From positions 672,001-736,000 of the forward strand of contig OY762463.1 of the NCBI GenBank assembly GCA_963665815.1: DNA of 64,000 bases, given 5' to 3'. The position numbers and the translations under genes are program-made. Each line of letters opens with the position of its first letter. Position 1 is the stretch's first letter. This document shows positions 970 to 51,440 of the stretch, piece after piece. This DNA comes from Candidatus Cloacimonadales bacterium. Its GTDB lineage: Bacteria; Cloacimonadota; Cloacimonadia; Cloacimonadales; JAIOQZ01. Under the pieces are notes generated by a model. That model did not search any database, was not told where the DNA came from, and saw nothing but the letters and a program-made list of their open reading frames with translations.

Positions 970-1119
970 AAGCCTATCTGCAAAGAAGTGTAAAGAATGT
1001 CAAGATTTATCAAGCAATAGAGACTTTGCATAGTTTTAAGAAGTTGATAAAATTCCTGTATTCAATTGAAATCTGTTACCTGAAACTACAGTTTTACTCC
1101 AGATAGAAACAAATGATCC

Positions 1120-2271
1120 CTATGTATGCTTTGGTTCGGTTGTAAATATACTGTCTGCGAATGATTTGTTCATTCGTATCAGGTTTTCATAATTACTGAT
1201 TGAACTCTTTCCATGTTTTTTAGCATCTTTGAGAGCATAATCTGCATTCTTAATCATTTCGTCAACGGAATCAGGCAAGCCAATACAAGAATCTGTCAGC
1301 CCAATACTTACTGTCATCTGAATAATACCGCGGTCCGTAGCTATGATAGAGTCTTCAATCTTTGTGTTAATCTTATCAGCAACAAGTTGAGCATTAGCTA
1401 TAGATGTATTAGGCAAAACAATGAGGAATTCTTTACTCGAATATCGACCAAAAATATCCATTCTCCTGATATTCTGCTGAATAATCAGCGAAACCTGTTG
1501 TAAAATCTGATCTCCGATCAGGTGACCATACGTATCGTTAATAAAACTGAAATTATCTATATCCAGCAGCATGCAGGAAAGATTTATACCGTATCTCTGG
1601 GTCTTACTGAATTCCTTCAGAAACATATCGAGAACAAATCTTCGATTGTATATTTTTGTGAGATAATCATGAGTTGCCAGCATGAATAACTCTTCGTTCT
1701 TCTGCGACAGAACAGCATTTTTCTTTTTCAGTTGACTGTTAAGCTGCTTGAGTTTATTGCGCTGTTTTCTTACTTCTGAGTATAATTCTTTCAGCAGGTT
1801 ATTTTTAACAGAATGAGAAATTTCAGTATATTTAGTATCGAAGACAATTTCTGAAACAGCCTCAAAAATATTCTCATTAATCTGAGGTACGATATCAATA
1901 ATTACTGCCAGATTATCATAATCGATAAGAACAAGCTCTGCTTCTTCATGACACACTATTTCATCGGTAACAATCTCCCTGTTAAAATAACCAAGTTCAC
2001 CAGTAAAACTATTAGCTGATCGCTCTAATCTCAACTCTCTGAACTTTCCATCTCCTGAATCATTATCTGAGACAGAACAATGTACTGAGATTAATCCGTT
2101 AACAACAAGTATTAATTCGACATCACTTAGTGACTCTTTTTTAAGCTTTTCTCCGGCATCTAACTTTACGGAAGTAAACATATCATCAGTTAAATCAATC
2201 AAATCACTTTGTTCAATACCATGGAACAGGAGATTGCGGATTATCTTATCGGCATATTTTGCTGAAATCAT
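1120..2271 (-). CDS. cNMP-binding-like domain, coiled coil and degenerate GGDEF domain
   Basis: N-terminal Crp-like beta-roll (FTGELG), coiled coil, then HDYLTKIYNRR, LLDIDNF, NDTYGHLIGD and TVSIG. The active-site motif reads SSKEF instead of GG(D/E)EF. Confidence 0.85.
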   Translation of the reverse strand: MISAKYADKIIRNLLFHGIEQSDLIDLTDDMFTSVKLDAGEKLKKESLSDVELILVVNGLISVHCSVSDNDSGDGKFRELRLERSANSFTGELGYFNREIVTDEIVCHEEAELVLIDYDNLAVIIDIVPQINENIFEAVSEIVFDTKYTEISHSVKNNLLKELYSEVRKQRNKLKQLNSQLKKKNAVLSQKNEELFMLATHDYLTKIYNRRFVLDMFLKEFSKTQRYGINLSCMLLDIDNFSFINDTYGHLIGDQILQQVSLIIQQNIRRMDIFGRYSSKEFLIVLPNTSIANAQLVADKINTKIEDSIIATDRGIIQMTVSIGLTDSCIGLPDSVDEMIKNADYALKDAKKHGKSSISNYENLIRMNKSFADSIFTTEPKHT

Positions 2272-2481
2272 ACATACCTCATTATTAAGTATTTTACACT
2301 ATAAATATACTTGATATTTGCTTCATGTAAATAAAAAGATTTTAAAATGTGTTGTCAATCTTATATATTATTTTATATATTACTTTCTTTAAAGAGACTT
2401 TTGCATAATTTTGATTAGTTGATTCGATTTTGGAAATCATCTTGCAATGGTCTTCTATAACTGGAAACTCAGGAGATTCTT

Positions 2482-5040
2482 ATGCATAAATTTTTAACTT
2501 TGTTTTTCTTTTTAATTATTTTAATTCCGGGAGGACTTCTCTGTAAAATGAGCAATAACAATAATGCAAAAAAATACGTCTTCAGGTTTGAACCACTGAC
2601 AGCCGGGGATTACGAAGTCTACGTTGTTGGAGATTTTAACGGTTGGAAGAAAAATGACGACTCAAAAATGTTAAATAATAATGGGATCTATACTAAGGAA
2701 TATTCACTTATTCCCGGTGAATATGCTTATAAATTCTACGTAAACGGAAAATGGATTAAAGACGAAAAAGCTGAAAAGTTTGCACCTGACAGCTTTGGTG
2801 GAGAAAATTCAATTCTGGTTATCGAAGAGACTGACAAAACTCTTCGGCGTATACATCTTGAATATCCTGCATCATCAGGCATATCTTCTGCTGCCGTTAC
2901 AGGCAGTTTCAATAAATGGAATCCTAAGAAATTCGAGATGATTAAAAAAAATGGCAGATTTCAACTCGATTTCATGCTTTATGATGGGAAATATGAGTTT
3001 AAATTTTTGATTGATGGAAAGGAATATCTGCTCAACAAGTTAAAATATAGAACAGTCCCGGATGGACTTGGAGGAGAAAATCACCTGTTAGTAGTTGATA
3101 GTAAACATCCTGAAATAATTGCTGAAAAAGGAGATTCAAGCATTGAAACTGACGTTCTATCAGGTATTAACAGAAATATCTTAGAAAAGATAAGCGATAA
3201 TCTGATTCAATTTACTTTCAGAACGGTAAGAAATGATGTAGAGTATGTCAAACTAAACCTTAATAATAAAGATTATGTAATGCATAAAGCGTATACTGCC
3301 AATAATTTCGATGTATATCAGATTATTCTTGATGCTGAGGAGAACATTGATATTCTTGTTGAATTAACTGACGGTTCAAAAAGTTTGTATTGGAATGGAT
3401 CAAAATTCTCAGATACTAAGGTAGCACCACTAAAAAATGTTCTCAGTGAGATTGATAATCCTGAGCCCAAATGGATTAAAGAAGGGATTATCTATCAGAT
3501 TTTTCCGGATAGATTTCAGAATGGCAATGCTGATCTGAATCAGGATTTCAGTGAATGGTATTATCAGGGTATGACAACACCTCCACCAAAAGGTAAAAAG
3601 CTAAAACCTAAGCAGAAATATTTCAGATTTGTTAAAAACTGGTATGATCATGCGCTTCTGCAGCATAATCCTCTTGCAGAAGACGGAGGACCGGACCTTA
3701 ACACTTTTTATGGTGGTGATATTGATGGAATTCACCAGAAACTTGATTATATAGACGATCTGGGCATAAACATCATATATCTGAATCCAGTTAATGAAGC
3801 ACGATCCAACCACAAGTATGACGTTATAGATTTTAAGAAAATAGATCCACACTTCGGGGATAAAGCTACATTCAAGAAATTTGTTGCTGCTGCACATAGA
3901 AAAGGTATTCAAGTAATTCTTGATCTGGTTCTGAATCATACTGGAGATGGCTTTCATGCGTTTCAACATGTCATAAAGTATGGAAAAGACTCAAAGTATT
4001 TCAATTGGTATGAATGGCGTAAGCTGCCTGTACCTTATCCATTCCCGGATGGATTCAATCCCGAAGAGTATTATGCATCATGGTGGGAACATGCAGACCT
4101 GCCGGATCTGAACTATGATCTTGCTCATCCCATTCCACAGGAAAATAAAATCGAAAATATTGAGGATGCTTCCCCCAATCAGGAGCTTGTTGACTATATG
4201 CTTTCAGTTGCAGATTTTTGGCTTTCAGAGATGGACATAGATGGGTTCAGACTGGATGTTCCTAATGAAGTTCCTTTCTGGTTTCTGGAGCTATTCAGGG
4301 ATAAATGTTATTCAATAAAGCCTGATGCAGTTATTATCGGGGAAATCTGGCAAAACGCTGAAAAATGGATGGATAATGATTATTTCAACGGGATAATGAA
4401 CTACGAATATTTTAAAGATCCTGTTTTGGACTTTATCTGTAACAGTAAAATTAGTGCTGAAGAATTTGATAATAAGATCACTCATGGTCTTGATAAATAT
4501 AGAAACAGTCAGATATCCAGCATGATGAACCTTCTCGACAGTCATGACACCTACAGAATTCTCCGGGTTTCTAATGGTATTTACGATAAAGTAAAACTGG
4601 CAGCATTGTTTCAGATGACATTTAAAGGAATGCCTCACATCTGGTATGGAGATGAAATAGCTATGACCGGAGGTAAAGATCCTGACAATCGCAGACCATT
4701 CAATTGGAAATATTATAGAGACAAGAAAAGCGTTGAGATGAGAAATTATTATAAAATACTGATTGCTCTACGTAAAGACAATAGTGAATTCACATTGGGA
4801 GGATTCAAGACTATTCTTACAGATAAAGATGTATATGTATACTCCAGATTTCTCAAAGATAAAGAATCATTTGTTGTTCTCAACACGGGAAACTCTGAAA
4901 GAACAATCACAATAGATATTGAAAATGCTGCAGACAAATACGTAAATCTCCTGGATGGTACCGAATTCAATTCTGAAAATGGAAAGCTGATTATAAAAGT
5001 ATCCCCTGTTTCAGGAGCTGTTCTCAAAGCTGCGGACTAA
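2482..5040 (+). CDS. Exported GH13 alpha-amylase/cyclomaltodextrinase-like enzyme with two CBM48/AMPK-like domains
   Basis: Signal peptide; two VxGxFNxW...YKF modules; YQIFPDRF and YGGDIDG; catalytic FRLDV, IGEIW and LDSHD. Confidence 0.9.
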   Translation: MHKFLTLFFFLIILIPGGLLCKMSNNNNAKKYVFRFEPLTAGDYEVYVVGDFNGWKKNDDSKMLNNNGIYTKEYSLIPGEYAYKFYVNGKWIKDEKAEKFAPDSFGGENSILVIEETDKTLRRIHLEYPASSGISSAAVTGSFNKWNPKKFEMIKKNGRFQLDFMLYDGKYEFKFLIDGKEYLLNKLKYRTVPDGLGGENHLLVVDSKHPEIIAEKGDSSIETDVLSGINRNILEKISDNLIQFTFRTVRNDVEYVKLNLNNKDYVMHKAYTANNFDVYQIILDAEENIDILVELTDGSKSLYWNGSKFSDTKVAPLKNVLSEIDNPEPKWIKEGIIYQIFPDRFQNGNADLNQDFSEWYYQGMTTPPPKGKKLKPKQKYFRFVKNWYDHALLQHNPLAEDGGPDLNTFYGGDIDGIHQKLDYIDDLGINIIYLNPVNEARSNHKYDVIDFKKIDPHFGDKATFKKFVAAAHRKGIQVILDLVLNHTGDGFHAFQHVIKYGKDSKYFNWYEWRKLPVPYPFPDGFNPEEYYASWWEHADLPDLNYDLAHPIPQENKIENIEDASPNQELVDYMLSVADFWLSEMDIDGFRLDVPNEVPFWFLELFRDKCYSIKPDAVIIGEIWQNAEKWMDNDYFNGIMNYEYFKDPVLDFICNSKISAEEFDNKITHGLDKYRNSQISSMMNLLDSHDTYRILRVSNGIYDKVKLAALFQMTFKGMPHIWYGDEIAMTGGKDPDNRRPFNWKYYRDKKSVEMRNYYKILIALRKDNSEFTLGGFKTILTDKDVYVYSRFLKDKESFVVLNTGNSERTITIDIENAADKYVNLLDGTEFNSENGKLIIKVSPVSGAVLKAAD

Positions 5041-23919: not shown

Positions 23920-24243
23920 TTAAAATTTTTCTATCGAATTTTCCAGTTTATCATCAATATTCAGAATTCTTGAAAATCCTGCTATATCGAATATCTCTTT
24001 TATGAACTCTTTCATACAGCATAATCTGAAATGACCACCATTTTTTTTCATTTTTTTGGCATTCATCAGGATTATCCTTAATCCGGCACTACTGATGTAT
24101 TCCAGCCCAGAAAAATCCATTATAATTTTCATGTTATCTACAGATTTCATCTTCTGACCCAGCTTATCAAATGTATTGGAATCAAGTCTACCGGATAGTT
24201 TTATTATCAAAACATCATTATACAAGACTTCAGTAATATCCAT
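23920..24243 (-). CDS. STAS anti-sigma factor antagonist (RsbV/SpoIIAA-like)
   Basis: GRLD, DFSGLEYISSAGLR with the phosphorylatable Ser, and IFDIAGF. Confidence 0.93.
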   Translation of the reverse strand: MDITEVLYNDVLIIKLSGRLDSNTFDKLGQKMKSVDNMKIIMDFSGLEYISSAGLRIILMNAKKMKKNGGHFRLCCMKEFIKEIFDIAGFSRILNIDDKLENSIEKF

Positions 24244-24245
24244 TC

Positions 24246-24665
24246 TTACTCCTTTATTATCTTTTTTAAAACTAATATATTATGTTCATTATCTCTTGAG
24301 TATCTTACATCATCCATTTTTTCTTTGACCAGCATAATTCCCAGTCCTCCAATCTCCATCTCATCAATTTCCAAATCAAGATCAGGTGTATCACTTTCAA
24401 GAGGATTAAATGCTTTGCCATCGTCAGTAATAGTGAGTTCCAGTGTATCACCATTGTAATCATAGGAGACATGGATAATGTGTTTTTCAGTATCATCAAA
24501 ACCATAGGAGATAATATTCGTCAGAATCTCATCAAGTGAAAGAGTTAAATCAAAAACTGATTTCACGGGGAAATCCAGTTTCTCTCCGATACTTTCTATC
24601 CATTCAACAACTTTTCCAATTTCCGGAATCTTATTCTCTATTTCGATTTTATCTGTATGTTTCAT
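24246..24665 (-). CDS. Anti-sigma factor/Ser kinase (RsbW/SpoIIAB-like HATPase)
   Basis: DEILTNIISYG (N box), DDGKAFNP and GGLGIMLV. Confidence 0.93.
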   Translation of the reverse strand: MKHTDKIEIENKIPEIGKVVEWIESIGEKLDFPVKSVFDLTLSLDEILTNIISYGFDDTEKHIIHVSYDYNGDTLELTITDDGKAFNPLESDTPDLDLEIDEMEIGGLGIMLVKEKMDDVRYSRDNEHNILVLKKIIKE

Positions 24666-24671
24666 AATATC

Positions 24672-26570
24672 TCACATATTACGTTTGAGGAACAATAATG
24701 TAATATCATCGAACTGCCTGTTCCTCTGAAAATCAGCTAACTGGTCAGTTAACTTATTAATCAATTCTTCCATTGTCAGAGAATGATTCTCCTCAAGATA
24801 GTTAAGAAACCTATCCTCTCCGAACAAGTTATTGTCTGCATCAGTAGCTTCAATTACGCCATCTGTATACAGTATAAGAGATTCATTAACATCAAGTTTT
24901 ATTTCACCATTATGAAATTCATGTTCATCATCAATACCAAGTGCTATATCCTGTTCTGTCTTCACAACTTTGGAAATCCCTGATTCAGATATAATTATCG
25001 GATAATCATGACCGGCATTGGAATATGTCAGTACTCCGGTTGAAACATCATAGAATCCAAGAAACAATGTGGTGAACATGCAGGCGTCATTATCCTGACA
25101 AAGTATGTAATTTGCTTTATTCAGTGCTTCAGCAGGTGTTAAATCAACTGTACAAACCGTTTTCAGCAGGGTTCTGGTTACAGCCATAAACAATCCGGCA
25201 GAAATCCCCTTTCCGGAAACATCTGCCATAATTACAGCAAGAACGTTATCATTCAAAAAAAAGAAATCGTAAAAGTCACCGGCAACCTCTTTTGCTGCAA
25301 TATTCTTTGCATATAAGTCAAATTCTTTTCTGTGAGGGAAAGCAGGGAAAATCTGAGGAAGAAGCGATTCCTGAATCTGACGGGCAATTCTCATTTCACT
25401 TTCTACGGCTTCTTTTGCCTGAGTCACACTGGTGAGATTACTGATGTATTGCTTCAAGTCTGCAACCATCTTAACAAATGAATGCTGAAGAGCCGCAATC
25501 TCATCCTGGCTGTCATTTGTTTCCATCTTGACATCTAATTCACCATAAGCAATTCTTTCGGTTACATCAACCAGTTTTTTCATCGGCACAGAAAAACGTT
25601 TTGCAGAAATAATAATTATAACCAATACAATAATCAATCCTGAAAACATTATGAGAAACTGCTTAATCACGTTTTTTCTGACTTCTGACAATACAATTTC
25701 TTCCGGTATTACAGCGGCAAAGCTCCATCCTGTTGACTGTATAGGTGTATAAACAATCCACTTTTTTTGATCATTATCAAGATCGTTATAACTCTCTATC
25801 CCACTCTCTCCTGCCAGCATACTTCTGCCAAGCTCTCTCAGTTCAGGTCTTCCGTATTGTTCTGCAAGGCTGAATATAGACTCGACCATGATATAATCCT
25901 CTCGCGGATGATATATAAATGTCCCGTTTTTACTGATTATAAATGTATAACCATTCATTATCTTTATATTACTTAGCATTTCAGACATGACTTTCAAAGA
26001 AATATCAGCATAAGAAACTCCAATAACCTTATCTTTTTTAATAATAGGATATGCCCGTAACATCAGCAGTGTTTTGCTAATTCTACCCCAGAATGGATCA
26101 GACCAGTATCCCTTTTTTAATACTGCCGGGATTACAAACCAGTCCTCTTTTAGATAATCGTATTGTGCAGCAACATCAGACATTGCGAATTCGCCGTCTT
26201 TTCTGTGAATAAAATTTGCATACTTCTTATTCTTGAAAGCTTCAGGATAAAATGCTACTCCCGAGCCAACATTATCCGGATCGCTTTCCAGTTCCTTAAC
26301 AACAAAATCGAAAACCAGGTCTTCATTATAGGTGTCGGTTGACTCTACCAGATTTCTTATACTGTTTGAAGTCTGAGACAGTTGCTCGAACTCTCTATCA
26401 AGCTTTTGAGCATTGTGACGAGTAAGCTCTTTTAAATACCTTTTTGTTTGATCAAGAGCATTATTCTTATTAATTATATAATTGTAAATGAGAACAAACA
26501 TATAGATTATTATTAGAGGGATTCCAAGTCTAGCTGTGAGCTTAAGCCATATTGGTCTTTTAATTTTCAT
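24672..26570 (-). CDS. Cache-HAMP-SpoIIE/PP2C sensor phosphatase (RsbU-like)
   Basis: Two TM helices around a Cache domain (WSDPF, GYTFII), HAMP (DEIAAL), VAGDFYD, ADVSGKG, NAGH, YTDGVIEA and DDITL; GGAG RBS before ATG 26570. Confidence 0.92.
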   Translation of the reverse strand: MKIKRPIWLKLTARLGIPLIIIYMFVLIYNYIINKNNALDQTKRYLKELTRHNAQKLDREFEQLSQTSNSIRNLVESTDTYNEDLVFDFVVKELESDPDNVGSGVAFYPEAFKNKKYANFIHRKDGEFAMSDVAAQYDYLKEDWFVIPAVLKKGYWSDPFWGRISKTLLMLRAYPIIKKDKVIGVSYADISLKVMSEMLSNIKIMNGYTFIISKNGTFIYHPREDYIMVESIFSLAEQYGRPELRELGRSMLAGESGIESYNDLDNDQKKWIVYTPIQSTGWSFAAVIPEEIVLSEVRKNVIKQFLIMFSGLIIVLVIIIISAKRFSVPMKKLVDVTERIAYGELDVKMETNDSQDEIAALQHSFVKMVADLKQYISNLTSVTQAKEAVESEMRIARQIQESLLPQIFPAFPHRKEFDLYAKNIAAKEVAGDFYDFFFLNDNVLAVIMADVSGKGISAGLFMAVTRTLLKTVCTVDLTPAEALNKANYILCQDNDACMFTTLFLGFYDVSTGVLTYSNAGHDYPIIISESGISKVVKTEQDIALGIDDEHEFHNGEIKLDVNESLILYTDGVIEATDADNNLFGEDRFLNYLEENHSLTMEELINKLTDQLADFQRNRQFDDITLLFLKRNM

Positions 26571-27516
26571 TGTCTGCTCCTTCAGGATCATAAATGAAAT
26601 CATTATACTCAATCTTATTTTTAATCATTTTCTGATTAAACAGAGCTTCTCTCACATTTTTATACTTGGATTCGTCCAGTTCACCAAAAGTATCATCTGT
26701 GAAAGCAGATTCAAGTATAGTTTCCAGCATCCACCTCTGCTCAGCATAGTTTGTTTTCAGTTTCCACTTAGAACAATATTCAAGAACCTTATTGATAGTC
26801 TCTTCCTTATTATCTCTGGCATACTCCCAGCCTCTTTTCACTGCTTTTCTGACACTATCTACTTCATTTCTATTTGATTCCATGTATTTAGAGGTAACGT
26901 ATAAGCCATCTTCCGGGAAGTTCATATCTGGATCTTTGGAAAAGAATATTGTGTTCATCTCATCGAAGTTTTTTCCTGCCAGATACAACTTGTAATATTC
27001 ATTGTAGTACATTGCTGCTGTGGCTTCGCAGGCACCGGATAAAAACAGGTCCATATTATAAGAACCTTCAATTCTATCAAATTTCAAATTATGCTTTCGG
27101 ATAAATGCATTGAATGACACATCAAAATCACCACTCCAGAGTCTGATTTTTCTGCCGTTCAAGTTATCAGGTGTCTCAATCCCGCTTTTACTGTCAGAAA
27201 CAATCATCAACGAGGAGTTTTGCAATATCTGCATAATATTTACAACTGATTTGTCATCATTATTTCTAATTGCACCTGTCAGCCAGGCTGTACAATAATC
27301 GATTTCACCGGATTTCAACTCATTAATCAAATTCTGAGAACCATCGGAAAAAATGAACTCAACTTCAAGATTGTTTTCTTCAAAGAATCCCTTTTCTTCT
27401 GCCATGATAAAACCAGCAAACTGGGCTTGAGGGTACCACTGAAATTTCATTTTAATAACATCTGCATTACAGTATACTGATACAAAAAAAATCATTATTA
27501 CAATTGCTTTTCTCAT
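26560..27516 (-). CDS. NMT1/THI5-like periplasmic binding protein
   Basis: Signal peptide; QWYPQAQFAGFIMAEEKGFF and YYNE motifs; overlaps the phosphatase gene by 11 nt. Confidence 0.85.
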   Translation of the reverse strand: MRKAIVIMIFFVSVYCNADVIKMKFQWYPQAQFAGFIMAEEKGFFEENNLEVEFIFSDGSQNLINELKSGEIDYCTAWLTGAIRNNDDKSVVNIMQILQNSSLMIVSDSKSGIETPDNLNGRKIRLWSGDFDVSFNAFIRKHNLKFDRIEGSYNMDLFLSGACEATAAMYYNEYYKLYLAGKNFDEMNTIFFSKDPDMNFPEDGLYVTSKYMESNRNEVDSVRKAVKRGWEYARDNKEETINKVLEYCSKWKLKTNYAEQRWMLETILESAFTDDTFGELDESKYKNVREALFNQKMIKNKIEYNDFIYDPEGADNEN

Positions 27517-42348: not shown

Positions 42349-44331
42349 CTATTTCAGCAATACGCTCTTTGTGTGAAAAGTTCTCGTTTTCCCGCCTGTT
42401 CTAACATTAAATCGATATAAATATACTCCGGAAGAAACAGACTTATCTCTGCTATCCTTAAAATTCCAGAAGAAATTGTATTTTTTCCCCTTCTCAGAAT
42501 TTACGATTCTCTTTACTTTCTGACCTTTTATATTATAGATTTCCAATTCTGCTCCATCACATTGTTCCTTTATACTGAAAGAAATGTGTTGAGATCCATT
42601 TATTCCCGATGGATTCGGATATACTGATATATCAGGTATTGAAAGATCTACATCATTATCTTTTACAGATACACCTTCAAGAAGATAATCAAGAGTAGCG
42701 GAATCTATCAGAAATATCTGCTTAGTTTCTTCATGCTGAATCCAGTATACAAAATGCAGATCAGTAAGGATATCATCAAATTCATGATCATCTATAATAT
42801 CCAGATCATATCTGGAAAAATCTATTGCAAAGAAAGCTTCTGTAGAATCAGCCAGCCCTTGTAAATTCATTCCGTTAATAGGAGTGAGACTTTTAAGCAA
42901 AATCATACCGGGAATTATGTCATCGGAAGAAGCTATCAATGGTACGTTCGTCTGAAAAATCCCAGCATGAAAAGCACAGTCCCCATAATATTGACTGAAA
43001 AGATATGTGTCTTCTATTTGCTGTACGTAAGTATCAATATATATGTTTTCACTTGCATCCATACCGACCATATATCCACTGCTCTGAAGAAATGTTTTGT
43101 CTGAAGCAATACTGTTTGTCGCTGCATAGTACGTATCTGCAAACTCATTTTCGTCCGAATATCCTGTGAGTTTGTTGTAACCCTGAACAACAATATTCGG
43201 TAGACCAAAGTTGTTGTAGAAACTACTTCTTGTTCCCGAAGAAGTTCTGAAAAATCTTAAATCGGATTGCTCCGGAAAATAATTAAGAATAAAGAAATCA
43301 GGAGTAAATATTTCTTCGTTAGTCATTATTGAACTGAAGTAATTAGCATCAGAATCAACAAAATTTTCCACAACTTTATTATCTAAAGGAGTAAGAAACA
43401 CATTGATTTCTGTACTTAAAGCATTGTTCGTCAGTATATCGTCATGTGATGATGTCAGGTTTGCCAAAATATCGTATTGTGCTGAAATAGATGGTAACAG
43501 AAAAGAATCATCAAATGAAGCTGTGTCAGATTTTGTCTCATATGGATCAAGATGTAAATCTGTAAGTGCCAGAGGAATACTGCTGAGTCCAGAAGAAGGA
43601 GGTGGAGTCAGTGAATAGTTGATATTGATATCATTCACTGTATAAGAATTGTTGTTCCTTATTGTATAATATGCTTGAACTTCTCCATCCGGATAAACAC
43701 GTCCGGTAATTCCAAAGTCAATTAAAGCTATATCATTGCTTGAAGCAAAAGTATAATGCCCCTGAAGACCTACAAGAAAATCTGAACTTAAGCCACTTCC
43801 AGCATTATTCCTGAAATAACCTTCCGTCTCAGAAAGTGCTTCCCAGTAGAAGCACCTGGAACCATCTCCGTTATTAGCTGACATATAAGGACTGTCTTCA
43901 TCTGTTTCATAATCAATTACAAGCCATAAGTCTGGAAGAGCTTCAACATCACCATCAAAATTGAAATCATACCAGTCAGATGCATCTCCATCCTGGAATG
44001 TATGGTTGCATGATGTTAAAAGACTATCGTCATCAATTATTGTTTTGTATAGCCTGAATGAAATAGTACCTGACGGATTGAACAGGTAAATCGACACTCC
44101 TTCTGCATCAAACATAGCTGAATCATTTACAGAATAAAAGTCACTGCTTACAAAATGCACTGCCCATCTGTTAGTTCCGTACCAGTGCTGTTCATCAATA
44201 CCGTTATGGTATGCCATTACCCCTGAATTTCTTTCAGGAAAAGTATTAACCGGATTATCTAACTCAATAACATTAACTCCGTATAATCCGGAAAACAAAA
44301 CAATTACTATTAAAGCTATATATGCCTTCAT
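42349..44331 (-). CDS. Secreted acidic protein with a C-terminal FlgD-Ig/Por-secretion-type sorting domain
   Basis: Signal peptide from ATG 44331; C-terminal VYPNP...IYNIKGQKVK...W...SSGVYLYRF...LLK. Confidence 0.8.
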   Translation of the reverse strand: MKAYIALIVIVLFSGLYGVNVIELDNPVNTFPERNSGVMAYHNGIDEQHWYGTNRWAVHFVSSDFYSVNDSAMFDAEGVSIYLFNPSGTISFRLYKTIIDDDSLLTSCNHTFQDGDASDWYDFNFDGDVEALPDLWLVIDYETDEDSPYMSANNGDGSRCFYWEALSETEGYFRNNAGSGLSSDFLVGLQGHYTFASSNDIALIDFGITGRVYPDGEVQAYYTIRNNNSYTVNDININYSLTPPPSSGLSSIPLALTDLHLDPYETKSDTASFDDSFLLPSISAQYDILANLTSSHDDILTNNALSTEINVFLTPLDNKVVENFVDSDANYFSSIMTNEEIFTPDFFILNYFPEQSDLRFFRTSSGTRSSFYNNFGLPNIVVQGYNKLTGYSDENEFADTYYAATNSIASDKTFLQSSGYMVGMDASENIYIDTYVQQIEDTYLFSQYYGDCAFHAGIFQTNVPLIASSDDIIPGMILLKSLTPINGMNLQGLADSTEAFFAIDFSRYDLDIIDDHEFDDILTDLHFVYWIQHEETKQIFLIDSATLDYLLEGVSVKDNDVDLSIPDISVYPNPSGINGSQHISFSIKEQCDGAELEIYNIKGQKVKRIVNSEKGKKYNFFWNFKDSRDKSVSSGVYLYRFNVRTGGKTRTFHTKSVLLK

Positions 44332-44565
44332 GTTTATGACCTGTCCTCTATTTTTATATCTCTTCATAGTGTAATATGAATAACTCATGAAATAGGTTTC
44401 AAATATGCAAAGAGATATTTATAATAGTCAATTTCAGAAAAAAACAAAACATGTAAAGAATTAAATCAATAAAAATGGATCATACACCTTTTCTCAGCTT
44501 CTCTTACTACAGGAGAAGAAAGTCTTTATCGCTTGACATTTAGCTTTGTGAAATTTTCCTGACTC

Positions 44566-44665
44566 TGTCTTCGAGCTTATGTATCTACGGCAATCCCGCT
44601 ATGAGACATAAGCCGATAGGGTTTATCCGGAAACAGATGAGCCTCCCGTGTTTGGAAAGAAGATG
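44566..44665 (+). ncRNA. Moco/tungsten-cofactor riboswitch-like RNA (variant lacking P3)
   Basis: P1 TGTCTTC/GAAGATG; P2 GCTTATGT/ACATAAGC; P4 GGTTTATC/GATGAGCC with a GAAA loop; 3' GCCTCCCGTGTTTGGAAAG matches the moaA-leader signature GCCTCCCGTATTTGGAAAG. Confidence 0.8.
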
Positions 44666-44847
44666 TAAGATGAATATAATAAAATATACCCACCATTTAT
44701 GAATATCTATTCATATCCACGGGGTTTTTACGCCATTTTTCCATCCATCCTACCGGAAAATTGATGAGAAACCTGAAATCAACTCTTAGCAATTTTCCTT
44801 CTTGAATATTATAAAAACACTGACTACAAAATACAATGGAGGAAACA

Positions 44848-46383
44848 ATGAACGACTTTCTCAAAGATTTGGGAATTAGGAACGTAAACTACGGAGCAAC
44901 TACAGGCTCTACCAATGGCTGGCTTAAAACAAGTGGAAGTGAATTGATATCATATTCACCAATTGACGGAAAACCTATTGCGGCAATAATCCAGGCTACC
45001 GAAGATGATTACGAAAAAGTAATGATTAAGGCAGTGAAAGCTTTCAAGAAGTGGAGAATGATGCCGGCACCACATAGAGGTGAGATTGTTCGGGAAATAG
45101 GTGAACAGCTCAGAAAATACAAAGAACCATTAGGTAAACTTATAACTCTTGAAATGGGTAAAATCGTCAATGAAGGTATAGGTGAGGTACAGGAAATGAT
45201 TGATATTGCAGATTTTGCCGTTGGGCTATCCAGACAGCTCTATGGAAACACCATGCACAGTGAAAGACCATATCACAGAATGTATGAACAATGGCATCCT
45301 CTTGGAGTAGTAGGAGTTATTACAGCTTTCAACTTCCCGGCTGCTGTCTGGTCATGGAATTGTCTTATTGCCGCTGTATGCGGAGATGTTAACCTGCTTA
45401 AGCCTTCTTCCAAAACTCCACTCACAGCTATTGCGATACACAATATCATAGCTCCGGTTGTGGACAAATATGGAATTGATGGAGTATTCAATCTGGTGAT
45501 TGGAAAAGGTAGTGTTATCGGCGAAAAAATCAACAACGACAGAAGAATTCCACTTGTCAGCGCAACGGGTAGCTGTAATATGGGAAGAAGAATCGGTCAG
45601 GCTGTAGCAAAGAGACTAGGTAGAACTATCCTTGAACTTGGCGGTAACAATGCAGTAATTGTTAGCGGGGATGCAGATATTAAAATGGCTGTGAGAGCTG
45701 TTCTGTTCGGTGCCGTTGGTACTGCAGGACAAAGGTGCACATCAACCAGAAGGATTATTCTTCATGAATCGCTGAAAGAAGAATTTCTGGAAAGACTCAT
45801 CAATGGGTACAAACAGATTAGAATAGGTAATCCACTTGAGGAAAACACACTTATGGGTCCACTTGTTGATGAATCGGCAGTTAATGATATGATGAATGCA
45901 ATCAAGAATATCAAAAAAGAAGGAGGGGATATTATTTATGGAGGTGGAAAATACAAGCTTAAAGGCTATGAAAAAGGAAGTTATGTTGAACCGACAATAG
46001 TCATAGCTGATAAAGATTTACCTATGATGAAAGAAGAGACTTTCGCTCCGATTCTATATATAACTACATTCAGGGATTTCAACGAAGCAATTGCAATCCA
46101 GAATAGTGTTGATCAGGGACTCTCATCATCAGTATTTACAACAAACATGAGATCTATGGAGCAGTTTCTCTCTCACGAAGGCTCTGACTGCGGTATAGCT
46201 AATGTAAACCTCGGAACAAACGGAGCTGAGATTGGTGGAGCATTTGGAGGAGAAAAAGATACTGGTGGAGGAAGAGAAGCCGGATCTGACTCGTGGAAAG
46301 CATACATGCGCAGACAGACAAACACTATTAACTGGGGTACAGCTTTACCGCTAGCACAGGGAATAAATTTCATAATAGACTAA
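44848..46383 (+). CDS. NAD-dependent aldehyde dehydrogenase, ALDH7/piperideine-6-carboxylate dehydrogenase type
   Basis: AFNFP, ELGGNN, AGQRCT, EETFAP and the ALDH7-type EIGGAFGGEKDTGGGREAGSDSWK; GGAGG RBS before ATG 44848. Confidence 0.9.
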   Translation: MNDFLKDLGIRNVNYGATTGSTNGWLKTSGSELISYSPIDGKPIAAIIQATEDDYEKVMIKAVKAFKKWRMMPAPHRGEIVREIGEQLRKYKEPLGKLITLEMGKIVNEGIGEVQEMIDIADFAVGLSRQLYGNTMHSERPYHRMYEQWHPLGVVGVITAFNFPAAVWSWNCLIAAVCGDVNLLKPSSKTPLTAIAIHNIIAPVVDKYGIDGVFNLVIGKGSVIGEKINNDRRIPLVSATGSCNMGRRIGQAVAKRLGRTILELGGNNAVIVSGDADIKMAVRAVLFGAVGTAGQRCTSTRRIILHESLKEEFLERLINGYKQIRIGNPLEENTLMGPLVDESAVNDMMNAIKNIKKEGGDIIYGGGKYKLKGYEKGSYVEPTIVIADKDLPMMKEETFAPILYITTFRDFNEAIAIQNSVDQGLSSSVFTTNMRSMEQFLSHEGSDCGIANVNLGTNGAEIGGAFGGEKDTGGGREAGSDSWKAYMRRQTNTINWGTALPLAQGINFIID

Positions 46384-46389
46384 TAGATA

Positions 46390-46423
46390 AAAAACAGGCT
46401 GTCATTGCTGATAGCCTGTTTTT
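46390..46423. terminator. Bidirectional intrinsic terminator
   Basis: AAAAACAGGCTGTCA-ttgc-TGATAGCCTGTTTTT between convergent genes. Confidence 0.85.
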
Positions 46424-46446
46424 CAAATTTTGAGGGTGAATCCAAA

Positions 46447-48231
46447 CTACTTGTAATGCAGTTTCAATATGTCACCATGATTAACTTCTGAAAGAGTAAC
46501 AATATATTTATCTTCAACCTTTTTTATAGAATATCCACTTTTGAACACAATTTTTTCTGGTTTGTTGTCCAGAGTGAAACTCAGGTTTTTTATTTTTCGT
46601 CTTTTAGTCTGACTGAATGAGATTTCTGAACTTCTTTTTTCATCCTTAATAATTACGGTTAAATCAAAGAGCTGATTCCATCGTTGTGATATCATTTTTA
46701 GATTTGCAATCCAGCTACCATCATTTTCTGCTCTATCAACTGCATTTTCTAGTACCTTCAAGGTTTTATCATTGTATCCGGAATATGCAGGATGTGCAAT
46801 AATTGTCATCAGTCCTTTATTCGGTCTAATAGCTCTATTCCAGAGACTTTTGAGATAAGTATCATATTTTGAAATATCTGAATCAAGTTTACTGCCTGTA
46901 TTACTGTTAGAATCAAGTGCTTTCAAATAATACCAGTCATCATGTAAATTCTGAGAAATCTCAAGTAAATCCAGTGAAAGATAGTATTTTTCATGAAAAA
47001 CAGGAACATTATAAGGATATACAGATCCTCGATAGTATTCAATGTGATTGACTCCAATACTTGAATCATACATATAGCCCATTTCCTGAAGAGCAAGCAT
47101 TCCGAAAAAACTGTTATTTGTGTTTGGAAATCTAAAGCCATCCGGGTGAATATCCATCTTGCTTTCAGAGGTCAGAAGTTCACTCATAGTTCCAGCATAA
47201 TTCAGTGTTCTGTAATCAACTCTGTTTCGAGAGTTTGATGCAATCTCAAGTAAGTCATTACTTCTGATTACCTTGACGATTTCTTTATCTATTTCAGCAT
47301 TTAAAAAAAAAGTAGCAGGCAGTTTTCTTTTTTTCAGAAATCTTAGTACTCTACTATACTGTTGCTGATTACCATTTGCATTAAAGCTTAAACACAAAGC
47401 AGATTCTGCACCTTTTTCCCAAACATTCATTCTGAGTTTATGATAGTTTTCACCTACAGCAAGGTCATAAATAAACTCATAGAAATTTGCTATTTCTTTA
47501 GAATTCGAGAATCCATTATCAATCGCTGGGTGGATCATACTGAAATTACCAAGCAGTACTGCTTTCCCTTGATGAAAGCTGTTAACTGTTAATGCAGGAT
47601 AAACGCTTTCCTCTTTTTTCCATTCAGCAATCGTACTCATTTTTGATGAAATCCTTTTAGTAATTACAGGTGTCCATTCATCTTTAGAAAAAGCTTCAAC
47701 TATCTCACCTTTCCAGATACCCTGCCCAATAATTGAATACCCCTTCATATTGAGTTCCTTAAGCTCTACACCAAAGCACTCAGACATCAACCAATTGCTT
47801 TTGCTGAACTTTCCCTCTGCATCGATTCTATCTTGCCCGTCCAGTTTATTTCTTCCAATATACACATCACTAACAAGCGTACCACCATTCTTAACCCAGT
47901 TCAGTAAATTCTGCATTTCAAAATCACTCAGATAAGAAAGCGAATACTGTCTGTCCCCATCATGGTAACCGTATGTAGTTGGAGCGATTATTATTGAGTA
48001 TTGCTGCATTTCCGAAGCATTATGCAGAATTTTACGATTTTCAATTCTCACAACTGATCCCAGTTTTGCAAATACTTCATTTGCAATAACCAGTCCATCT
48101 GATATTGTGCCACGACCATCTCCATCTCCTGTAGACAAGAACAGCACTTTGGGTAATTGGTACTCCAGTGTGGTTAAATTACTCAGAATGAGGAGTGCAA
48201 AAACTATAAATAAAACTCTCTGATTTTTCAT
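46447..48231 (-). CDS. Exported protein: class-I GATase/beta-gal-trimerisation-like domain plus degenerate CE4 deacetylase-like domain
   Basis: Signal peptide; NodB-like fold segments (PATFFL, GFRFP, YDSS, HP) with the catalytic D/H residues replaced. Confidence 0.65.
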   Translation of the reverse strand: MKNQRVLFIVFALLILSNLTTLEYQLPKVLFLSTGDGDGRGTISDGLVIANEVFAKLGSVVRIENRKILHNASEMQQYSIIIAPTTYGYHDGDRQYSLSYLSDFEMQNLLNWVKNGGTLVSDVYIGRNKLDGQDRIDAEGKFSKSNWLMSECFGVELKELNMKGYSIIGQGIWKGEIVEAFSKDEWTPVITKRISSKMSTIAEWKKEESVYPALTVNSFHQGKAVLLGNFSMIHPAIDNGFSNSKEIANFYEFIYDLAVGENYHKLRMNVWEKGAESALCLSFNANGNQQQYSRVLRFLKKRKLPATFFLNAEIDKEIVKVIRSNDLLEIASNSRNRVDYRTLNYAGTMSELLTSESKMDIHPDGFRFPNTNNSFFGMLALQEMGYMYDSSIGVNHIEYYRGSVYPYNVPVFHEKYYLSLDLLEISQNLHDDWYYLKALDSNSNTGSKLDSDISKYDTYLKSLWNRAIRPNKGLMTIIAHPAYSGYNDKTLKVLENAVDRAENDGSWIANLKMISQRWNQLFDLTVIIKDEKRSSEISFSQTKRRKIKNLSFTLDNKPEKIVFKSGYSIKKVEDKYIVTLSEVNHGDILKLHYK

Positions 48232-51200
48232 TTTATCCTCTCGATTATAATTTTCTTGTTAACAGCAGCAGAAAAAACAATCTCATTATTTCGAACATTA
48301 TAAACTCCATCACTGCTGCTGTTTGATACTTTTACAATTTTCCAGTCTGTCTTGAATGTTACAGATAAAGGTTGATCATATACTAAAGGATTAAGTTCAG
48401 AATACAATTCCACAATATATGAGTTGAAACCATTTTGAGTTTTAACTGTTGTGTTTTCCCTTTCAATAATGTATTTTCCTACTGCTGAGACAGGAGCAAT
48501 CCAGTAATCAGAATTTCTTATTAACCTAATTTGATTGTCAAAAACTCTTGGAGTTACTGAATACCGGTTATATACATTATGATAATCAAAAAGATGCATT
48601 TCTTTTGAATTCTCTGGGAAAATGTGATGATACATAAAAACAGTCCATTCACCATAATTATCTTCAATAATTTTTTGAATTTCAATTTGTGATGGATCTT
48701 TATCATTAAGAATTGTTTTACTGTTAAGATGAAGAAGGTTCTCAATGCAATTATTCTGCGAGTTGTCTCCAATTCTTCCAAACATGAATCCGCTTCTTTC
48801 AGCCGCAGAATAAATCTTTTCATCTGCAAAAGAATATGGGTATTGAATTGTATATACCTGGTCTCCAATTTTACTCTCAATCAAGTCCTTATTTTTTTTT
48901 AATTGAAAAACGATATCCTCTATTTTTTTATTCTTATCAATTCTCTTATGTAGATAACCATGGGAACTAATTTCATTTCCATATTCATGCAATTTTCTTA
49001 TCTGCTCCCAACCCATTCTTTCAATTCCAAATCCACCATCTTCAGTGGTTGTATGAGGACTTTCTGCAACCCATTCACCAACAACACCAAACGTACCGGT
49101 GATATGATATTTTTTTAGTGTCTCAAAGGCAAACTCGTACTGTCCCATTCCGGTATCATCGAATGTAACTGAAATTGCTCCTTTCTTATTTTCATACCAC
49201 TTTGCTATTTCAAACTCTTCCGTAACAGACTCTGAGTAAATGGTTTCATTGGGTTTCAGGCTGGCAAAAAGCGTTTTCAGAGTATCATATTGTGCTTTTT
49301 TCCTGACTTCATATTCAGGAATATCCCACTTGCTCCAGATATATTTGTAACTCTTTTCGTTTTCGGGAACAGTATATAATACATTGTTCTTATTATCTGT
49401 TATGTACGTATATATCTTGAAATTTTCAATCTCTGTAGTTTCGATATCCGGTGTATCAGGTTTATCATCCAGAACCTGCAGAGATGACGGATCAGAAACA
49501 TTAAGCAAATGCCATGGTAATCTTATTTCCAAAATACCTGTTTCATCGCTATAGTACCAATCGGCATTAGAGTTTTCATCCACGTTTCCACAAACCAGTT
49601 TACTCCGATTATGAATTTTCTGAGGAAACTTCTCACCAAGCAATGTTTCCCTTGCTCTGTTCGAGATAAGCTCTTGTGGAACAAATCTACCGTCGCTGTT
49701 TGACATAGATCTGTATACCGGAACATAGTCATTGTAAATATCTGAAAACACAGAATACTCATCATCTATCAAAACATAGGCAGAATCTCTGGAAGAAAGT
49801 TCAAGTAAAAATTCGATTCCTGTGGGGGCATCCTTTTTCAGCATTGCAAGATTGTGTTCACCTTTATTTTCATCATAAGTATCAATTGCAATTAATAGAT
49901 TTTTTTCATCAAATCTGAAATCATCTAATTCATACTTCAGGTAAAAGTAACTTGGATCAGCATGAGCCTGAACATTCTTCTCATCAAACTTTGAAGGTTC
50001 CTGCCAGTCATTTTTTTGACCATCAGGAATTATTGTTCTATTTTCAACTGCCAGAACACCAAAATTCTGTTCCGGGTTTTCCTTATTATGCCAATACTTC
50101 CTTCTATGTTGAGGTTGTTCAAAATCCATAACCATCCAGTTAAATTTAAACCACTCATCAATCCATTCAAACATAATTGCTCCACCACAATCAGTTTCAT
50201 GAATATTCTCTGTTAAAATTTTGTTTATGTTTGCCTGTTCAATTTCATTATGACCACCCTGATCAAAACCATAAGGAGTATAATGACTATTTCCTCTGCT
50301 TGATGGAACCCCATATTCTGCAATTATCAAAGGGATATCAGGACAAAAATCCTTTAGATCTTTGAGATATGCTTTATAATTATTCTCATCATGACGATAC
50401 TTGATATCCAGATATACATAATCCGGATAATACGGATACGCATGATAAGCAGCATAAATTCCAGATTTAGCAAACTTGGTGTTATGAAATTTCTGAAAAT
50501 CTATAGATTCAAGATCATTATCATATTCCCGGACTTTATCATTTTCAATGAATTCTGAATTATGATGCATCGGATCAAGAGGTAACCAGTTTACAAAAGA
50601 AACCGGATGCTGTGACTTATATTTAAGTGTTTCATATTTATATGTATAATCCATCATTTCCGCCAGCCATGTTTCCATTGGTGTTCCTGAAGGTACACAG
50701 ACAAAATCCCCGGAAAAACTTTTTCTCCGGTTATTCTGGTTAGTATAAGTTACACTCCTGGGCTCCCACTCTCTCCCTAACAGAAAAGCGACAGTATACT
50801 TAGATACATCAGAAACATATGTCCCAGAGGCTTTGCCCTTTAAAGGCTCAAGAACACTATTCCCATGAATTACATCAATCACATCCTTTATCTCTTTTCG
50901 GAAATCATAAGAGTAATCTTCATTCATATAGTCATGTGAGTCCGGAACTGTAGCCCAGACACCCTGCATCAGATACAAAGGCTTGTCAGAATAGATAAGA
51001 TTATAATTCGCAAAAGCTTCGTAGAAAACAGGAGGTAAGATTGTGTAAACCCTGACTACATTGGAGTTCATTTCACCTATCTGGATAAACCAATTCATGT
51101 ATAAATCAAAATCCTGAGGAAATTCTGAAGGAAATTTTCCGGGTAGAGCAGCCCCTAAATTGACTCCCTTAAGAAATATTGACTCCCATTCATTTACGCC

Positions 51201-51440
51201 TTTAACATTCTTTTTGATCTGGAAATAATCCTTCTTTATACGGAAATCAGGAGATACTTTTTCTGCAGCAGCCGAAAGTATTTTGATATCAAACTCTGGT
51301 AAGAGTTCAACCCTGACTACTGTGCTGTCTACGACAATTATCTTCTCCTGACGAATTTTGTTCTCGACTTTCATCATGAAGTACAGAATTATTGAAATCA
51401 GGATTACAAGTATTGAAATTACAAAGTATTTTGATTTCAT
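48228..51440 (-). CDS. Membrane-anchored clan-A-like glycoside hydrolase fused to a CE4 polysaccharide deacetylase
   Basis: KGVNLG, NVVRVYT, GREWE, IAEYG and FEWIDEW in the TIM-barrel part; C-terminal TFDD, SHGYLH, YPY and MYH. Confidence 0.75.
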   Translation of the reverse strand: MKSKYFVISILVILISIILYFMMKVENKIRQEKIIVVDSTVVRVELLPEFDIKILSAAAEKVSPDFRIKKDYFQIKKNVKGVNEWESIFLKGVNLGAALPGKFPSEFPQDFDLYMNWFIQIGEMNSNVVRVYTILPPVFYEAFANYNLIYSDKPLYLMQGVWATVPDSHDYMNEDYSYDFRKEIKDVIDVIHGNSVLEPLKGKASGTYVSDVSKYTVAFLLGREWEPRSVTYTNQNNRRKSFSGDFVCVPSGTPMETWLAEMMDYTYKYETLKYKSQHPVSFVNWLPLDPMHHNSEFIENDKVREYDNDLESIDFQKFHNTKFAKSGIYAAYHAYPYYPDYVYLDIKYRHDENNYKAYLKDLKDFCPDIPLIIAEYGVPSSRGNSHYTPYGFDQGGHNEIEQANINKILTENIHETDCGGAIMFEWIDEWFKFNWMVMDFEQPQHRRKYWHNKENPEQNFGVLAVENRTIIPDGQKNDWQEPSKFDEKNVQAHADPSYFYLKYELDDFRFDEKNLLIAIDTYDENKGEHNLAMLKKDAPTGIEFLLELSSRDSAYVLIDDEYSVFSDIYNDYVPVYRSMSNSDGRFVPQELISNRARETLLGEKFPQKIHNRSKLVCGNVDENSNADWYYSDETGILEIRLPWHLLNVSDPSSLQVLDDKPDTPDIETTEIENFKIYTYITDNKNNVLYTVPENEKSYKYIWSKWDIPEYEVRKKAQYDTLKTLFASLKPNETIYSESVTEEFEIAKWYENKKGAISVTFDDTGMGQYEFAFETLKKYHITGTFGVVGEWVAESPHTTTEDGGFGIERMGWEQIRKLHEYGNEISSHGYLHKRIDKNKKIEDIVFQLKKNKDLIESKIGDQVYTIQYPYSFADEKIYSAAERSGFMFGRIGDNSQNNCIENLLHLNSKTILNDKDPSQIEIQKIIEDNYGEWTVFMYHHIFPENSKEMHLFDYHNVYNRYSVTPRVFDNQIRLIRNSDYWIAPVSAVGKYIIERENTTVKTQNGFNSYIVELYSELNPLVYDQPLSVTFKTDWKIVKVSNSSSDGVYNVRNNEIVFSAAVNKKIIIERIK

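Follow-up and report, generated by a model that had tools for sequence, protein, structure and literature searches.

The stretch analysed here, called the window throughout, comprises 64,000 nucleotides (nt) of the genome of a Candidatus Cloacimonadales bacterium (contig OY762463.1, positions 672,001–736,000, forward strand). Our subject within it is an RNA element of the molybdenum cofactor (Moco)/tungsten cofactor (Wco) riboswitch class and the aldehyde dehydrogenase (ALDH) gene that follows it. When the whole 64-kb window was scanned with cmscan against Rfam 15, the sole match was RF01055, at 44557–44678 (+), scoring 82.3 bits (gathering score, 36; E = 2e-18). The match spans the full model (1–135) with the P3 positions deleted in the covariance model (CM) alignment; P1, P2, the GAAA-tetraloop stem and the junction CCUCCC...GGAAAG are all present with posterior values of about 1. 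Absence of P3 characterizes the P3-less ('Tuco'/Wco) subtype. An initial annotation, which had described a well-formed P3-less Moco-motif RNA and proposed the Rfam model as a check on it, is thus borne out on this point. The features of the locus are:

44533–44538 (+): promoter-like TTGACA, 18 nt before the aptamer (leader comparison)
44557–44678 (+): Moco/Wco riboswitch aptamer, P3-less (RF01055; CM match)
44567–44572 (+): P1 core 5' strand (GUCUUC), forming six standard pairs with 44659–44664 (CM alignment)
44659–44664 (+): P1 core 3' strand (GAAGAU), immediately 3' of the conserved GGAAA junction (CM alignment, P1 pairing)
44688–44729 (+): two-part AU-rich hairpin plus U run, weak and terminator-like, with a GGGGUUUUU tail (predicted in all folds)
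44734–44748 (+): switch sequence X (CAUUUUUCCAUCCAU), candidate anti-Shine–Dalgarno/anti-aptamer (folds, duplexes, conservation in a congener)
44838–44850 (+): Shine–Dalgarno (SD) sequence GGAGG (44838–44842) and probable start codon ATG (44848–44850), conserved in the congener
44848–46383 (+): ALDH7-type dehydrogenase, monocistronic (hidden Markov models, structure relatives)

The next same-strand open reading frame (ORF) after the aptamer (44836/44848–46383, +) matches Pfam Aldedh with 442 bits and the NCBIfam equivalog for L-piperideine-6-carboxylate dehydrogenase (NF050084) with 781.1 bits against a cut-off of 730; the runner-up family reached 329.8 against 770. Its closest solved structures, similar over the full length, are Pcd, antiquitin and human ALDH7A1 (alpha-aminoadipic-semialdehyde dehydrogenase), with E values of 1e-152 to 1e-177, and other ALDH families matched at 2.6e-69 or weaker. 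The equivalog score and these relatives uphold the earlier ALDH7 assignment, and the product is by prediction an L-piperideine-6-carboxylate/alpha-aminoadipate-semialdehyde dehydrogenase. It is like ALDH7/antiquitin/Pcd in equivalog score and full-length similarity, and differs in having no lysine-catabolic neighbours among the window ORFs scanned; its substrate in this anaerobe is a predicted one. Translation probably starts at ATG 44848, because GGAGG lies at 44838–44842 and ATG 44836 is not conserved in the congener (genome G001). The RNA does lie upstream of the gene, at a distance from aptamer end to start of 169 nt rather than the 180 nt or so given initially. With a convergent neighbour next in line (46447–48231, minus strand), the gene is monocistronic. 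No molybdenum (Mo) or tungsten (W) family turned up when 47 ORFs of the window were scanned, 6 of them at E ≤ 0.001 and the other 41 at E ≤ 1e-10, so the earlier statement that the window has no such gene stands for those ORFs; Mo/W genes do occur elsewhere in the genome.

Four aptamer copies in one genome

The genome to which the window belongs (a single contig of 3.96 Mb, 98.7% complete) holds four RF01055 copies, all P3-less and scoring 61–82 bits against the family model. The window aptamer is the top-scoring of the four, and the structural elements named above recur in the other three. The genes downstream are:

Copy 1: ALDH7 (window)
Copy 2: L-glutamate-gamma-semialdehyde (P5C) dehydrogenase, P5CDH (TIGR01236, 789 bits against a cut-off of 614)
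Copy 3: classic aldehyde:ferredoxin oxidoreductase, AOR (AFOR_N + AFOR_C), then MoaD-family and ThiF/MoeB-like genes
Copy 4: operon (C1:1382108–1391154) of a 609-amino-acid (aa) lipoprotein, an ABC_cobalt-type S component, an Oxidored_molyb-hit protein, a phosphodiesterase-like protein, two ABC ATPases, a BtuB-like TonB receptor and a CbiQ-like T component

Judged by these downstream genes, two of the four riboswitches precede NAD-type semialdehyde dehydrogenases and one a W-type AOR. Described targets of the Moco RNA are cofactor synthesis, molybdate/tungstate transport and cofactor-using enzymes, according to the available portions of the literature (PMC2408646, PMC3766115 and a 2024 review, PMC11672702). 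The AOR and uptake-operon copies agree with that range of molybdopterin (MPT)/Wco biosynthesis, transport and Wco-using enzymes; the window copy, with an NAD-dependent ALDH7 downstream, does not. Regulski et al. (2008), in the part of the article available (PMC2408646), linked the P3-less form to users of the tungsten cofactor. The initial annotation's use of this association holds here: the genome encodes W-type AORs, one of them with its own RNA copy, and relatives that have the cofactor pathway carry the RNA before WtpA or TupA-like proteins.

The window aptamer is 87% identical to its orthologue in the congener, and by our own reading of the alignment P2 shows a two-sided change from G-C to A-U between the two. 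We ruled out that the ALDH7 aptamer is a recent copy of another aptamer, as its identity to all except that orthologue is at most 65%. A second AOR of the genome (725 aa) has no riboswitch; it lies beside a 140-aa poly-ferredoxin subunit in an AorAB-like arrangement (C1:2792205–2798982; L083, 3205–9982), with a sigma-54 activator a few kb upstream.

Distribution among relatives

We compared 60 Cloacimonadales-like relatives together with the genome itself (61 genomes). RF01055 occurs in 44 of them, with 78 hits, 67 of which are 115–127 nt long and 11 longer. ALDH7 orthologues are present in seven genomes, and the RNA lies directly upstream only in our genome and its congener. Among 53 species-level ALDH7 loci one has the RNA (L084, ALDH7 90% identical), and this locus may belong to the same genome as the congener and so is not independent; both loci with a P5CDH–ALDH7 operon lack it (L080, L081). 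At 29 metagenome ALDH7 loci, all at most 66% identical, a regular-expression screen that recovers 63 of the 78 known aptamers found none; no Rfam scan was made of them. The RNA–ALDH7 pairing, which the initial annotation had proposed to look for in relatives, is confined to one genus.

The picture is wider for a second dehydrogenase. P5CDH orthologues occur in 41 of the 61 genomes, and 18 of these, spread over five families, carry the RNA directly upstream of the gene. Forty genomes have AOR-family genes; RNA and AOR-family genes are both present in 39, RNA only in 5, AOR only in 1 and neither in 16. The RNA–P5CDH pairing was found in 17 of the 23 P5CDH genomes with an AOR-family gene as against 1 of the 18 without (Fisher p = 1.7e-5, uncorrected for relatedness), and the lone exception is a genome that is 90% complete. 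P5CDH and ALDH7 stand adjacent on the same strand, in operon-like fashion and with no RNA, in two genomes (G048 and G059), both of which lack AOR. From these distributions in the 61 genomes, the RNA–ALDH7 pairing reads as a genus-level extension of a wider, AOR-linked RNA–P5CDH regulon.

In two families the RNA–P5CDH unit runs on into NADH-linked [FeFe]-hydrogenase genes, which is consistent with a change of redox carrier. NuoE/NuoF-like modules or a HydA-type [FeFe]-hydrogenase follow the riboswitch–P5CDH unit at L170 296–6790 (G010), L172 2893–6318 (G051) and L077 (G038). In genus g9 the RNA lies 220–490 nt before hydA in three genomes. The placing of the RNA before the hydrogenase there is probably secondary: in G051 the two genes share an operon, with P5CDH first and the hydrogenase after it. 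In G038 a 38-codon ORF after the aptamer resembles, by our own reading of the sequence, the N terminus of P5CDH and is a possible remnant. Downstream of the riboswitch–P5CDH unit of G009 (L166, about 931–4876), some 4 kb have nearly no ORFs of at least 90 aa and may be masked or non-coding.

Genus g3 has a split AOR fused to NuoE/NuoF/Fer2 modules, in an operon with a MoeB-like gene, and ALDH7 follows this operon on the same strand at a distance of 370 nt. At the locus in G003 (L082, 3809–11461), AFOR_N forms one protein with a 2Fe-2S domain of NuoE type; there are also a NuoF-like subunit and a fusion of Fer2_4 and Fer4 with AFOR_C, followed by a MoeB-like gene and ALDH7. This split AOR may be an NAD-linked or bifurcating W-oxidoreductase of undescribed architecture.

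Leader architecture and predicted direction of the switch

TTGAC starts 22–29 nt upstream of the aptamer in 69 of the 78 RF01055 leaders, compared with 47 of 1880 background 40-nt windows, and is present in both ALDH7 leaders. Because of this fixed distance the aptamer very probably stands at the 5' end of the mRNA, just downstream of a predicted transcription start. An AT-rich hexamer follows TTGACA after only about 12 nt, unlike the usual 16–19-nt sigma-70 spacer, which hints at an unusual promoter geometry in the lineage. The TTGACA signature is missing from the AOR leaders of our genome and its congener. A GGAGG-type SD sequence is present in all leaders.

Between aptamer and start codon lies switch sequence X, 14 nt of which (CAUUUUUCCAUCCA, 44734–44747) are invariant between the two ALDH7 leaders. 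In the unconstrained and P1-blocked folds of the window leader X pairs with the 3' half of the aptamer; when P1 is enforced it pairs with AUGGAGGAAAcAAUG, which comprises the SD sequence plus AUG. The duplex of linker and SD reaches −11.7 kcal/mol in our genome and −11.5 kcal/mol in the congener (z = −2.0 and −2.3 against shuffled linkers). For the aptamer 3' strand, too, this segment of the linker forms the best duplex, which overlaps the SD pairing by 17 and 13 nt.

We then compared SD accessibility between a bound state, modelled by enforcing the P1 core, and a free state, modelled by blocking the P1 5' strand, in leaders with a P1 of at least 5 base pairs. An earlier proxy for the bound state, the aptamer's own minimum free energy fold, was dropped as noisy and often missing P1. 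The mean change (bound minus free) and the numbers of leaders below −0.15 and above +0.15 were, by class, with energy-coupling factor (ECF) and substrate-binding protein (SBP) leaders listed separately:

ECF leaders (n = 6): mean −0.25; below, 4; above, 0
SBP leaders (n = 3): mean −0.22; below, 2; above, 0
Lipoprotein/other leaders (n = 35): mean −0.23; below, 18; above, 1
P5CDH leaders (n = 17): mean −0.16; below, 8; above, 0
AOR leaders (n = 5): mean +0.35; below, 0; above, 3
ALDH7 leaders (n = 2): mean −0.06; below, 0; above, 0

The transporter leaders (ECF, SBP, lipoprotein/other), which are expected to be OFF switches, lose SD accessibility when P1 is enforced. Outside the AOR class, the linker segment that pairs best with the SD region is in most leaders also the one that pairs best with the aptamer 3' strand. 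A linker segment with dual pairing, defined by SD and aptamer-strand pairings that share at least 4 nt and both have z < −1 in the shuffle test, was found in 3/3 SBP, 24/39 other, 7/12 P5CDH, 2/6 ECF and 1/2 ALDH7 leaders (the shared segment itself is present in both ALDH7 leaders). The SD sequence of P5CDH is the P1 3' strand itself in four genomes (G016, G022, G047 and G051), and such an SD-in-P1 arrangement was read as repression at E. coli moaA in the available part of Regulski et al. (PMC2408646). The AOR leaders are built otherwise. Four of the five have no linker, their SD sequence lies 5–10 nt after the P1 3' core, and in the free-state folds it pairs with the aptamer CCUCCC; in the fifth, from G011, where a split AOR follows, the linker measures 42 nt and gives no anti-SD signal (z = −0.3 and −0.4).

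The layout that the ALDH7 and P5CDH leaders share with the transporter leaders indicates OFF switches; the AOR leaders, which do not have it, look ON-like. For ALDH7 the most likely device is an OFF switch that acts on translation through a long-range anti-SD. In the absence of ligand, X would pair with the 3' half of the aptamer, including the P1 3' strand, and leave the SD sequence and AUG, 110 nt downstream, usable; with ligand bound, P1 would close and X, once freed, would pair with the SD sequence and AUG and stop translation. The OFF switch proposed in the initial annotation thus gains from the likeness of the aptamer-strand/anti-SD/SD layout to that of the transporter leaders, and gains little from the accessibility change of only −0.06.

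Cofactor supply and a candidate import system

Profile searches of the genome found no MoaC, MoeA_N, MoaE or MoaA C-terminal family (the same searches were positive in 11 of 14 control genomes), and its single MoCF_biosynth hit lies in a 405-aa frame. Searches by tblastn with MoeA, MoaC and neighbouring proteins from the operons of two relatives gave nothing; MoaA-like queries gave only weak, generic radical-SAM matches and a TupA-like query only a 25-residue fragment. Six pterin-enzyme candidates are encoded nonetheless: three AFOR_C hits, one 278-bit Molybdopterin-oxidoreductase hit and two MoCoBD_1 proteins. The organism appears from these gene searches to be unable to synthesize the pterin cofactor. 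The genome survey suggested in the initial annotation (aor, tupABC, wtpA) came out in two ways, with AOR present and no clear tupA, wtpA or modA tungstate-binding protein in the genome. The idea that the metal is the scarce item sits badly with the lack of these binding proteins and of MoaA/C/E and MoeA; what runs short would instead be a scavenged pterin cofactor.

The relatives divide along similar lines. MoaC occurs in five of the 61 genomes and MoeA in four, and these four are the ones with the RNA before WtpA or TupA-like proteins. The RNA precedes WtpA/TupA–moeA–moaC operons in relatives that have the pathway; WtpA there scores 384 bits against a cut-off of 355, and the TupA-like protein, at 270 bits, falls short of its cut-off of 400. 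In genomes without the pathway the RNA stands before a lipoprotein, although one MoeA genome (G038) has a lipoprotein leader as well.

This lipoprotein, a family of about 270 aa with no Pfam match, is the commonest RNA target, following 35 of the 78 riboswitches in 34 genomes; the 609-aa lipoprotein of copy 4 consists of two copies of its domain. The best Foldseek match of its AlphaFold model (pLDDT 91.7) was PruR, a 'putative pterin binding protein' (probability 1.00, E = 0.017). With an independent aligner the top ten were all SUOX-fold Moco/pterin domains (Z 9.9–6.0; unrelated rows at most 5.1): SoxC at 9.9, PruR with neopterin at 9.6, sulfite dehydrogenases at 8.6–8.8, nitrate reductase at 8.2 and sulfite oxidase/YedY at about 7. 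In sequence the lipoprotein resembles neither the 261-aa protein encoded in the AOR operon nor the Oxidored_molyb-hit protein. The model of the RNA-linked lipoprotein matches a Moco/pterin-binding fold, with binding predicted, and the lipoprotein/ECF/TonB operon of copy 4 is a candidate Moco/Wco import system.

Neighbouring genes

ALDH7 is flanked by a protein with a C-terminal sorting domain of the type IX secretion system (42349–44388, −) on one side and by two very large polysaccharide-deacetylase-domain proteins (46447–51440, −) on the other, and neither flank is related to amino-acid or cofactor metabolism. Farther off, at 23920–26612 (−), the window holds a partner-switching module: a SpoIIE-type phosphatase with a Cache/PDC sensor, a HATPase_c_2 anti-sigma-like kinase and a STAS protein.

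Discussion

The identities of the aptamer and of the genes, the gene distributions and the complementarities within the leaders are established, and an interpretation can be built on them. We consider it somewhat more probable than otherwise that the window element is a genuine, functional P3-less Moco/Wco riboswitch at the head of the ALDH7 mRNA, its ligand judged from gene context, and that it would act as a translational OFF switch within the cofactor-sparing regulon of a cofactor scavenger; this estimate covers ligand, direction and backup role together. Four operons would make up the regulon, with the uptake operon, P5CDH and ALDH7 under OFF-type control and the W-type AOR with its MoaD/MoeB-like genes under ON-like control. 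When the cofactor runs short, uptake would be raised, and W-dependent, ferredoxin-linked aldehyde oxidation would be replaced by NAD-dependent semialdehyde dehydrogenases. If the lineage scavenges its pterin cofactor, the supply would be uncertain, and a cofactor-sparing switch would therefore be useful. In Aromatoleum, AOR can stand in for an NAD-dependent ALDH, according to the available part of one study (PMC6365974). The metal-free backup envisaged in the initial annotation is strengthened by a second cofactor-free dehydrogenase, P5CDH, that carries the RNA almost exclusively in genomes with AOR-family genes, and weakened by the restriction of the RNA–ALDH7 pairing to one genus.

Several points weigh against this interpretation. 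That AOR acts on aminoadipate or glutamate semialdehyde is a supposition. The ligand of the P3-less RNA is assigned from gene context only, and is less certain still in an organism that lacks the pathway. The ALDH7 SD sequence is mostly paired in both modelled states (0.00 against 0.11 in our genome, 0.00 against 0.01 in the congener), and the duplex of X with the aptamer strand has z = −2.7 in the congener and 0.0 in our genome, where it is no better than with shuffled sequence (172-nt linker). The RNA–ALDH7 pairing occurs in only two genomes, which are close relatives, so the platform model has no support from covariation. The direction of the AOR leaders is soft, being ON-like in three of five, and every modelled state allows the 5' flank to pair with the AOR start codon. 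P5CDH has no RNA in 6 of the 23 AOR-positive P5CDH genomes. Finally, the hairpin and U run between aptamer and X could mean transcription attenuation.

Under attenuation the OFF logic would be the same and operate at transcription, with the ligand letting the AU-rich hairpin and U run (44688–44729) terminate, or expose the transcript to Rho, before ALDH7. Every fold contains the hairpin with its GGGGUUUUU tail, the congener retains the hairpin's upper stem, and the ALDH7 leader is long (169 nt, compared with 15–90 nt in the other classes). However, a terminator scan of 44300–46600 called nothing, the stem is weak (3–4 GC pairs, a 6x6 internal loop), and the hairpin is nested inside the X:aptamer helix and so forms in both modelled states. 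We regard attenuation as unlikely.

It is also improbable, in our estimate, that the ligand in this lineage is something other than the finished tungsten cofactor, be it molybdopterin free of metal, a breakdown product or some other pterin, such that the regulon would report pterin salvage status rather than W-enzyme capacity. Speaking for such a ligand are the genome's lack of detected MoaA/C/E and MoeA, the PruR/SUOX pterin-binding fold of the commonest RNA target, and the indirect assignment of the P3-less ligand in the part of PMC2408646 available; on the other side, the aptamer cores are highly conserved (61–82 bits) and the same RNA precedes WtpA/TupA–moeA–moaC operons in pathway-bearing relatives.

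An ON switch or co-expression device, by which ALDH7 would be made together with the W enzymes because it serves one pathway with them, perhaps following an AOR-linked step, seems to us quite unlikely. The modelled accessibility difference for ALDH7 is small, and the position of ALDH7 beside the AOR–NuoEF operon in genus g3 could mean cooperation rather than substitution. Against this, the ALDH7 leader has a transporter-type linker and not the linker-less AOR layout, none of the 17 P5CDH leaders is ON-like, and P5CDH leaders with the SD sequence inside P1 are of the repressing, moaA type. Very improbable is a decaying relic, with ALDH7 expressed from its own promoter inside the leader and no cofactor response: a sigma-70-like TTGGAA-17-TATAAT (44652–44680) does overlap the aptamer 3' end, but such matches are common (13 found, 7.5 expected) and this one is not conserved in the congener, whereas the aptamer is the best-scoring in its genome, is conserved in the congener with the two-sided P2 change noted above and an invariant X, and has the lineage TTGAC signature upstream of it, not inside the leader.

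Cobalamin riboswitches control B12-independent isozymes such as metE and nrd genes. The OFF switch proposed for ALDH7 would follow the same logic, in which the cofactor represses a cofactor-free substitute along with uptake genes; it differs in RNA family and cofactor, and the B12 isozyme pairs are biochemically established, whereas the W counterpart of ALDH7 and P5CDH is deduced. 'Isozymes of B12-dependent enzymes' is a listed category of cobalamin riboswitch targets (PMC3766115, available portion). Compared with the Moco/Tuco riboswitch of the E. coli moaABCDE leader (as given in the accessible part of PMC2408646), the leaders here are alike in aptamer family, in an SD sequence within or competing with the P1 3' strand and in the implied repression by ligand; they differ in having as target an NAD-dependent, pterin-free enzyme, in a genome with no detected biosynthetic pathway. 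The Cloacimonadales-like lineage is not among the Moco RNA lineages listed in the available portions of the 2008 study and the 2024 review. A pangenome preprint on Cloacimonadota gives AOR in 23 of 35 Clade I genomes, and words beginning tungst- or molybd-, cofactor and auxotroph are absent from its main text; in a 2026 classification of W-oxidoreductases the word 'riboswitch' does not occur. No publication that ties ALDH, P5CDH or the import of cofactor to the Moco RNA was found in a literature that mostly excluded subscription journals, and the supplementary gene lists of Regulski et al. lay outside the search. The RNA class is known; the regulatory context, a Mo/W-cofactor riboswitch on a cofactor-independent substitute, is new in the searchable literature.

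A wider picture, which we offer tentatively and rate as somewhat short of probable, is that most Cloacimonadales-like bacteria are unable to make molybdopterin and would scavenge ready-made pterin cofactor (Wco/Moco or MPT) from the syntrophic community around them, by way of an import system under riboswitch control: a SUOX/PruR-fold surface lipoprotein, a BtuB-like TonB receptor and an ECF-type transporter. The same riboswitch would favour W-dependent, ferredoxin-linked AORs when cofactor is at hand and, when it is not, NAD-linked P5CDH (joined by ALDH7 in this genus) and the NADH-linked [FeFe]-hydrogenase modules of some families.

Riboswitch control of cofactor-independent substitutes is textbook knowledge for B12 and undescribed for the Mo/W cofactor in the literature searched. 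If the interpretation is true, the Moco/Wco riboswitch would be more than a feedback device for synthesis and transport and would also switch aldehyde oxidation between W-dependent and NAD-dependent enzymes, and amino-acid semialdehydes would be nominated as physiological substrates of uncharacterized clades of AOR/W-oxidoreductases. The pterin import route would be the first bacterial route of Moco/Wco uptake, abundant bacteria of anaerobic digesters would be probable pterin-cofactor auxotrophs with a candidate import system, and cross-feeding of a very labile pterin cofactor between microbes would become directly testable.

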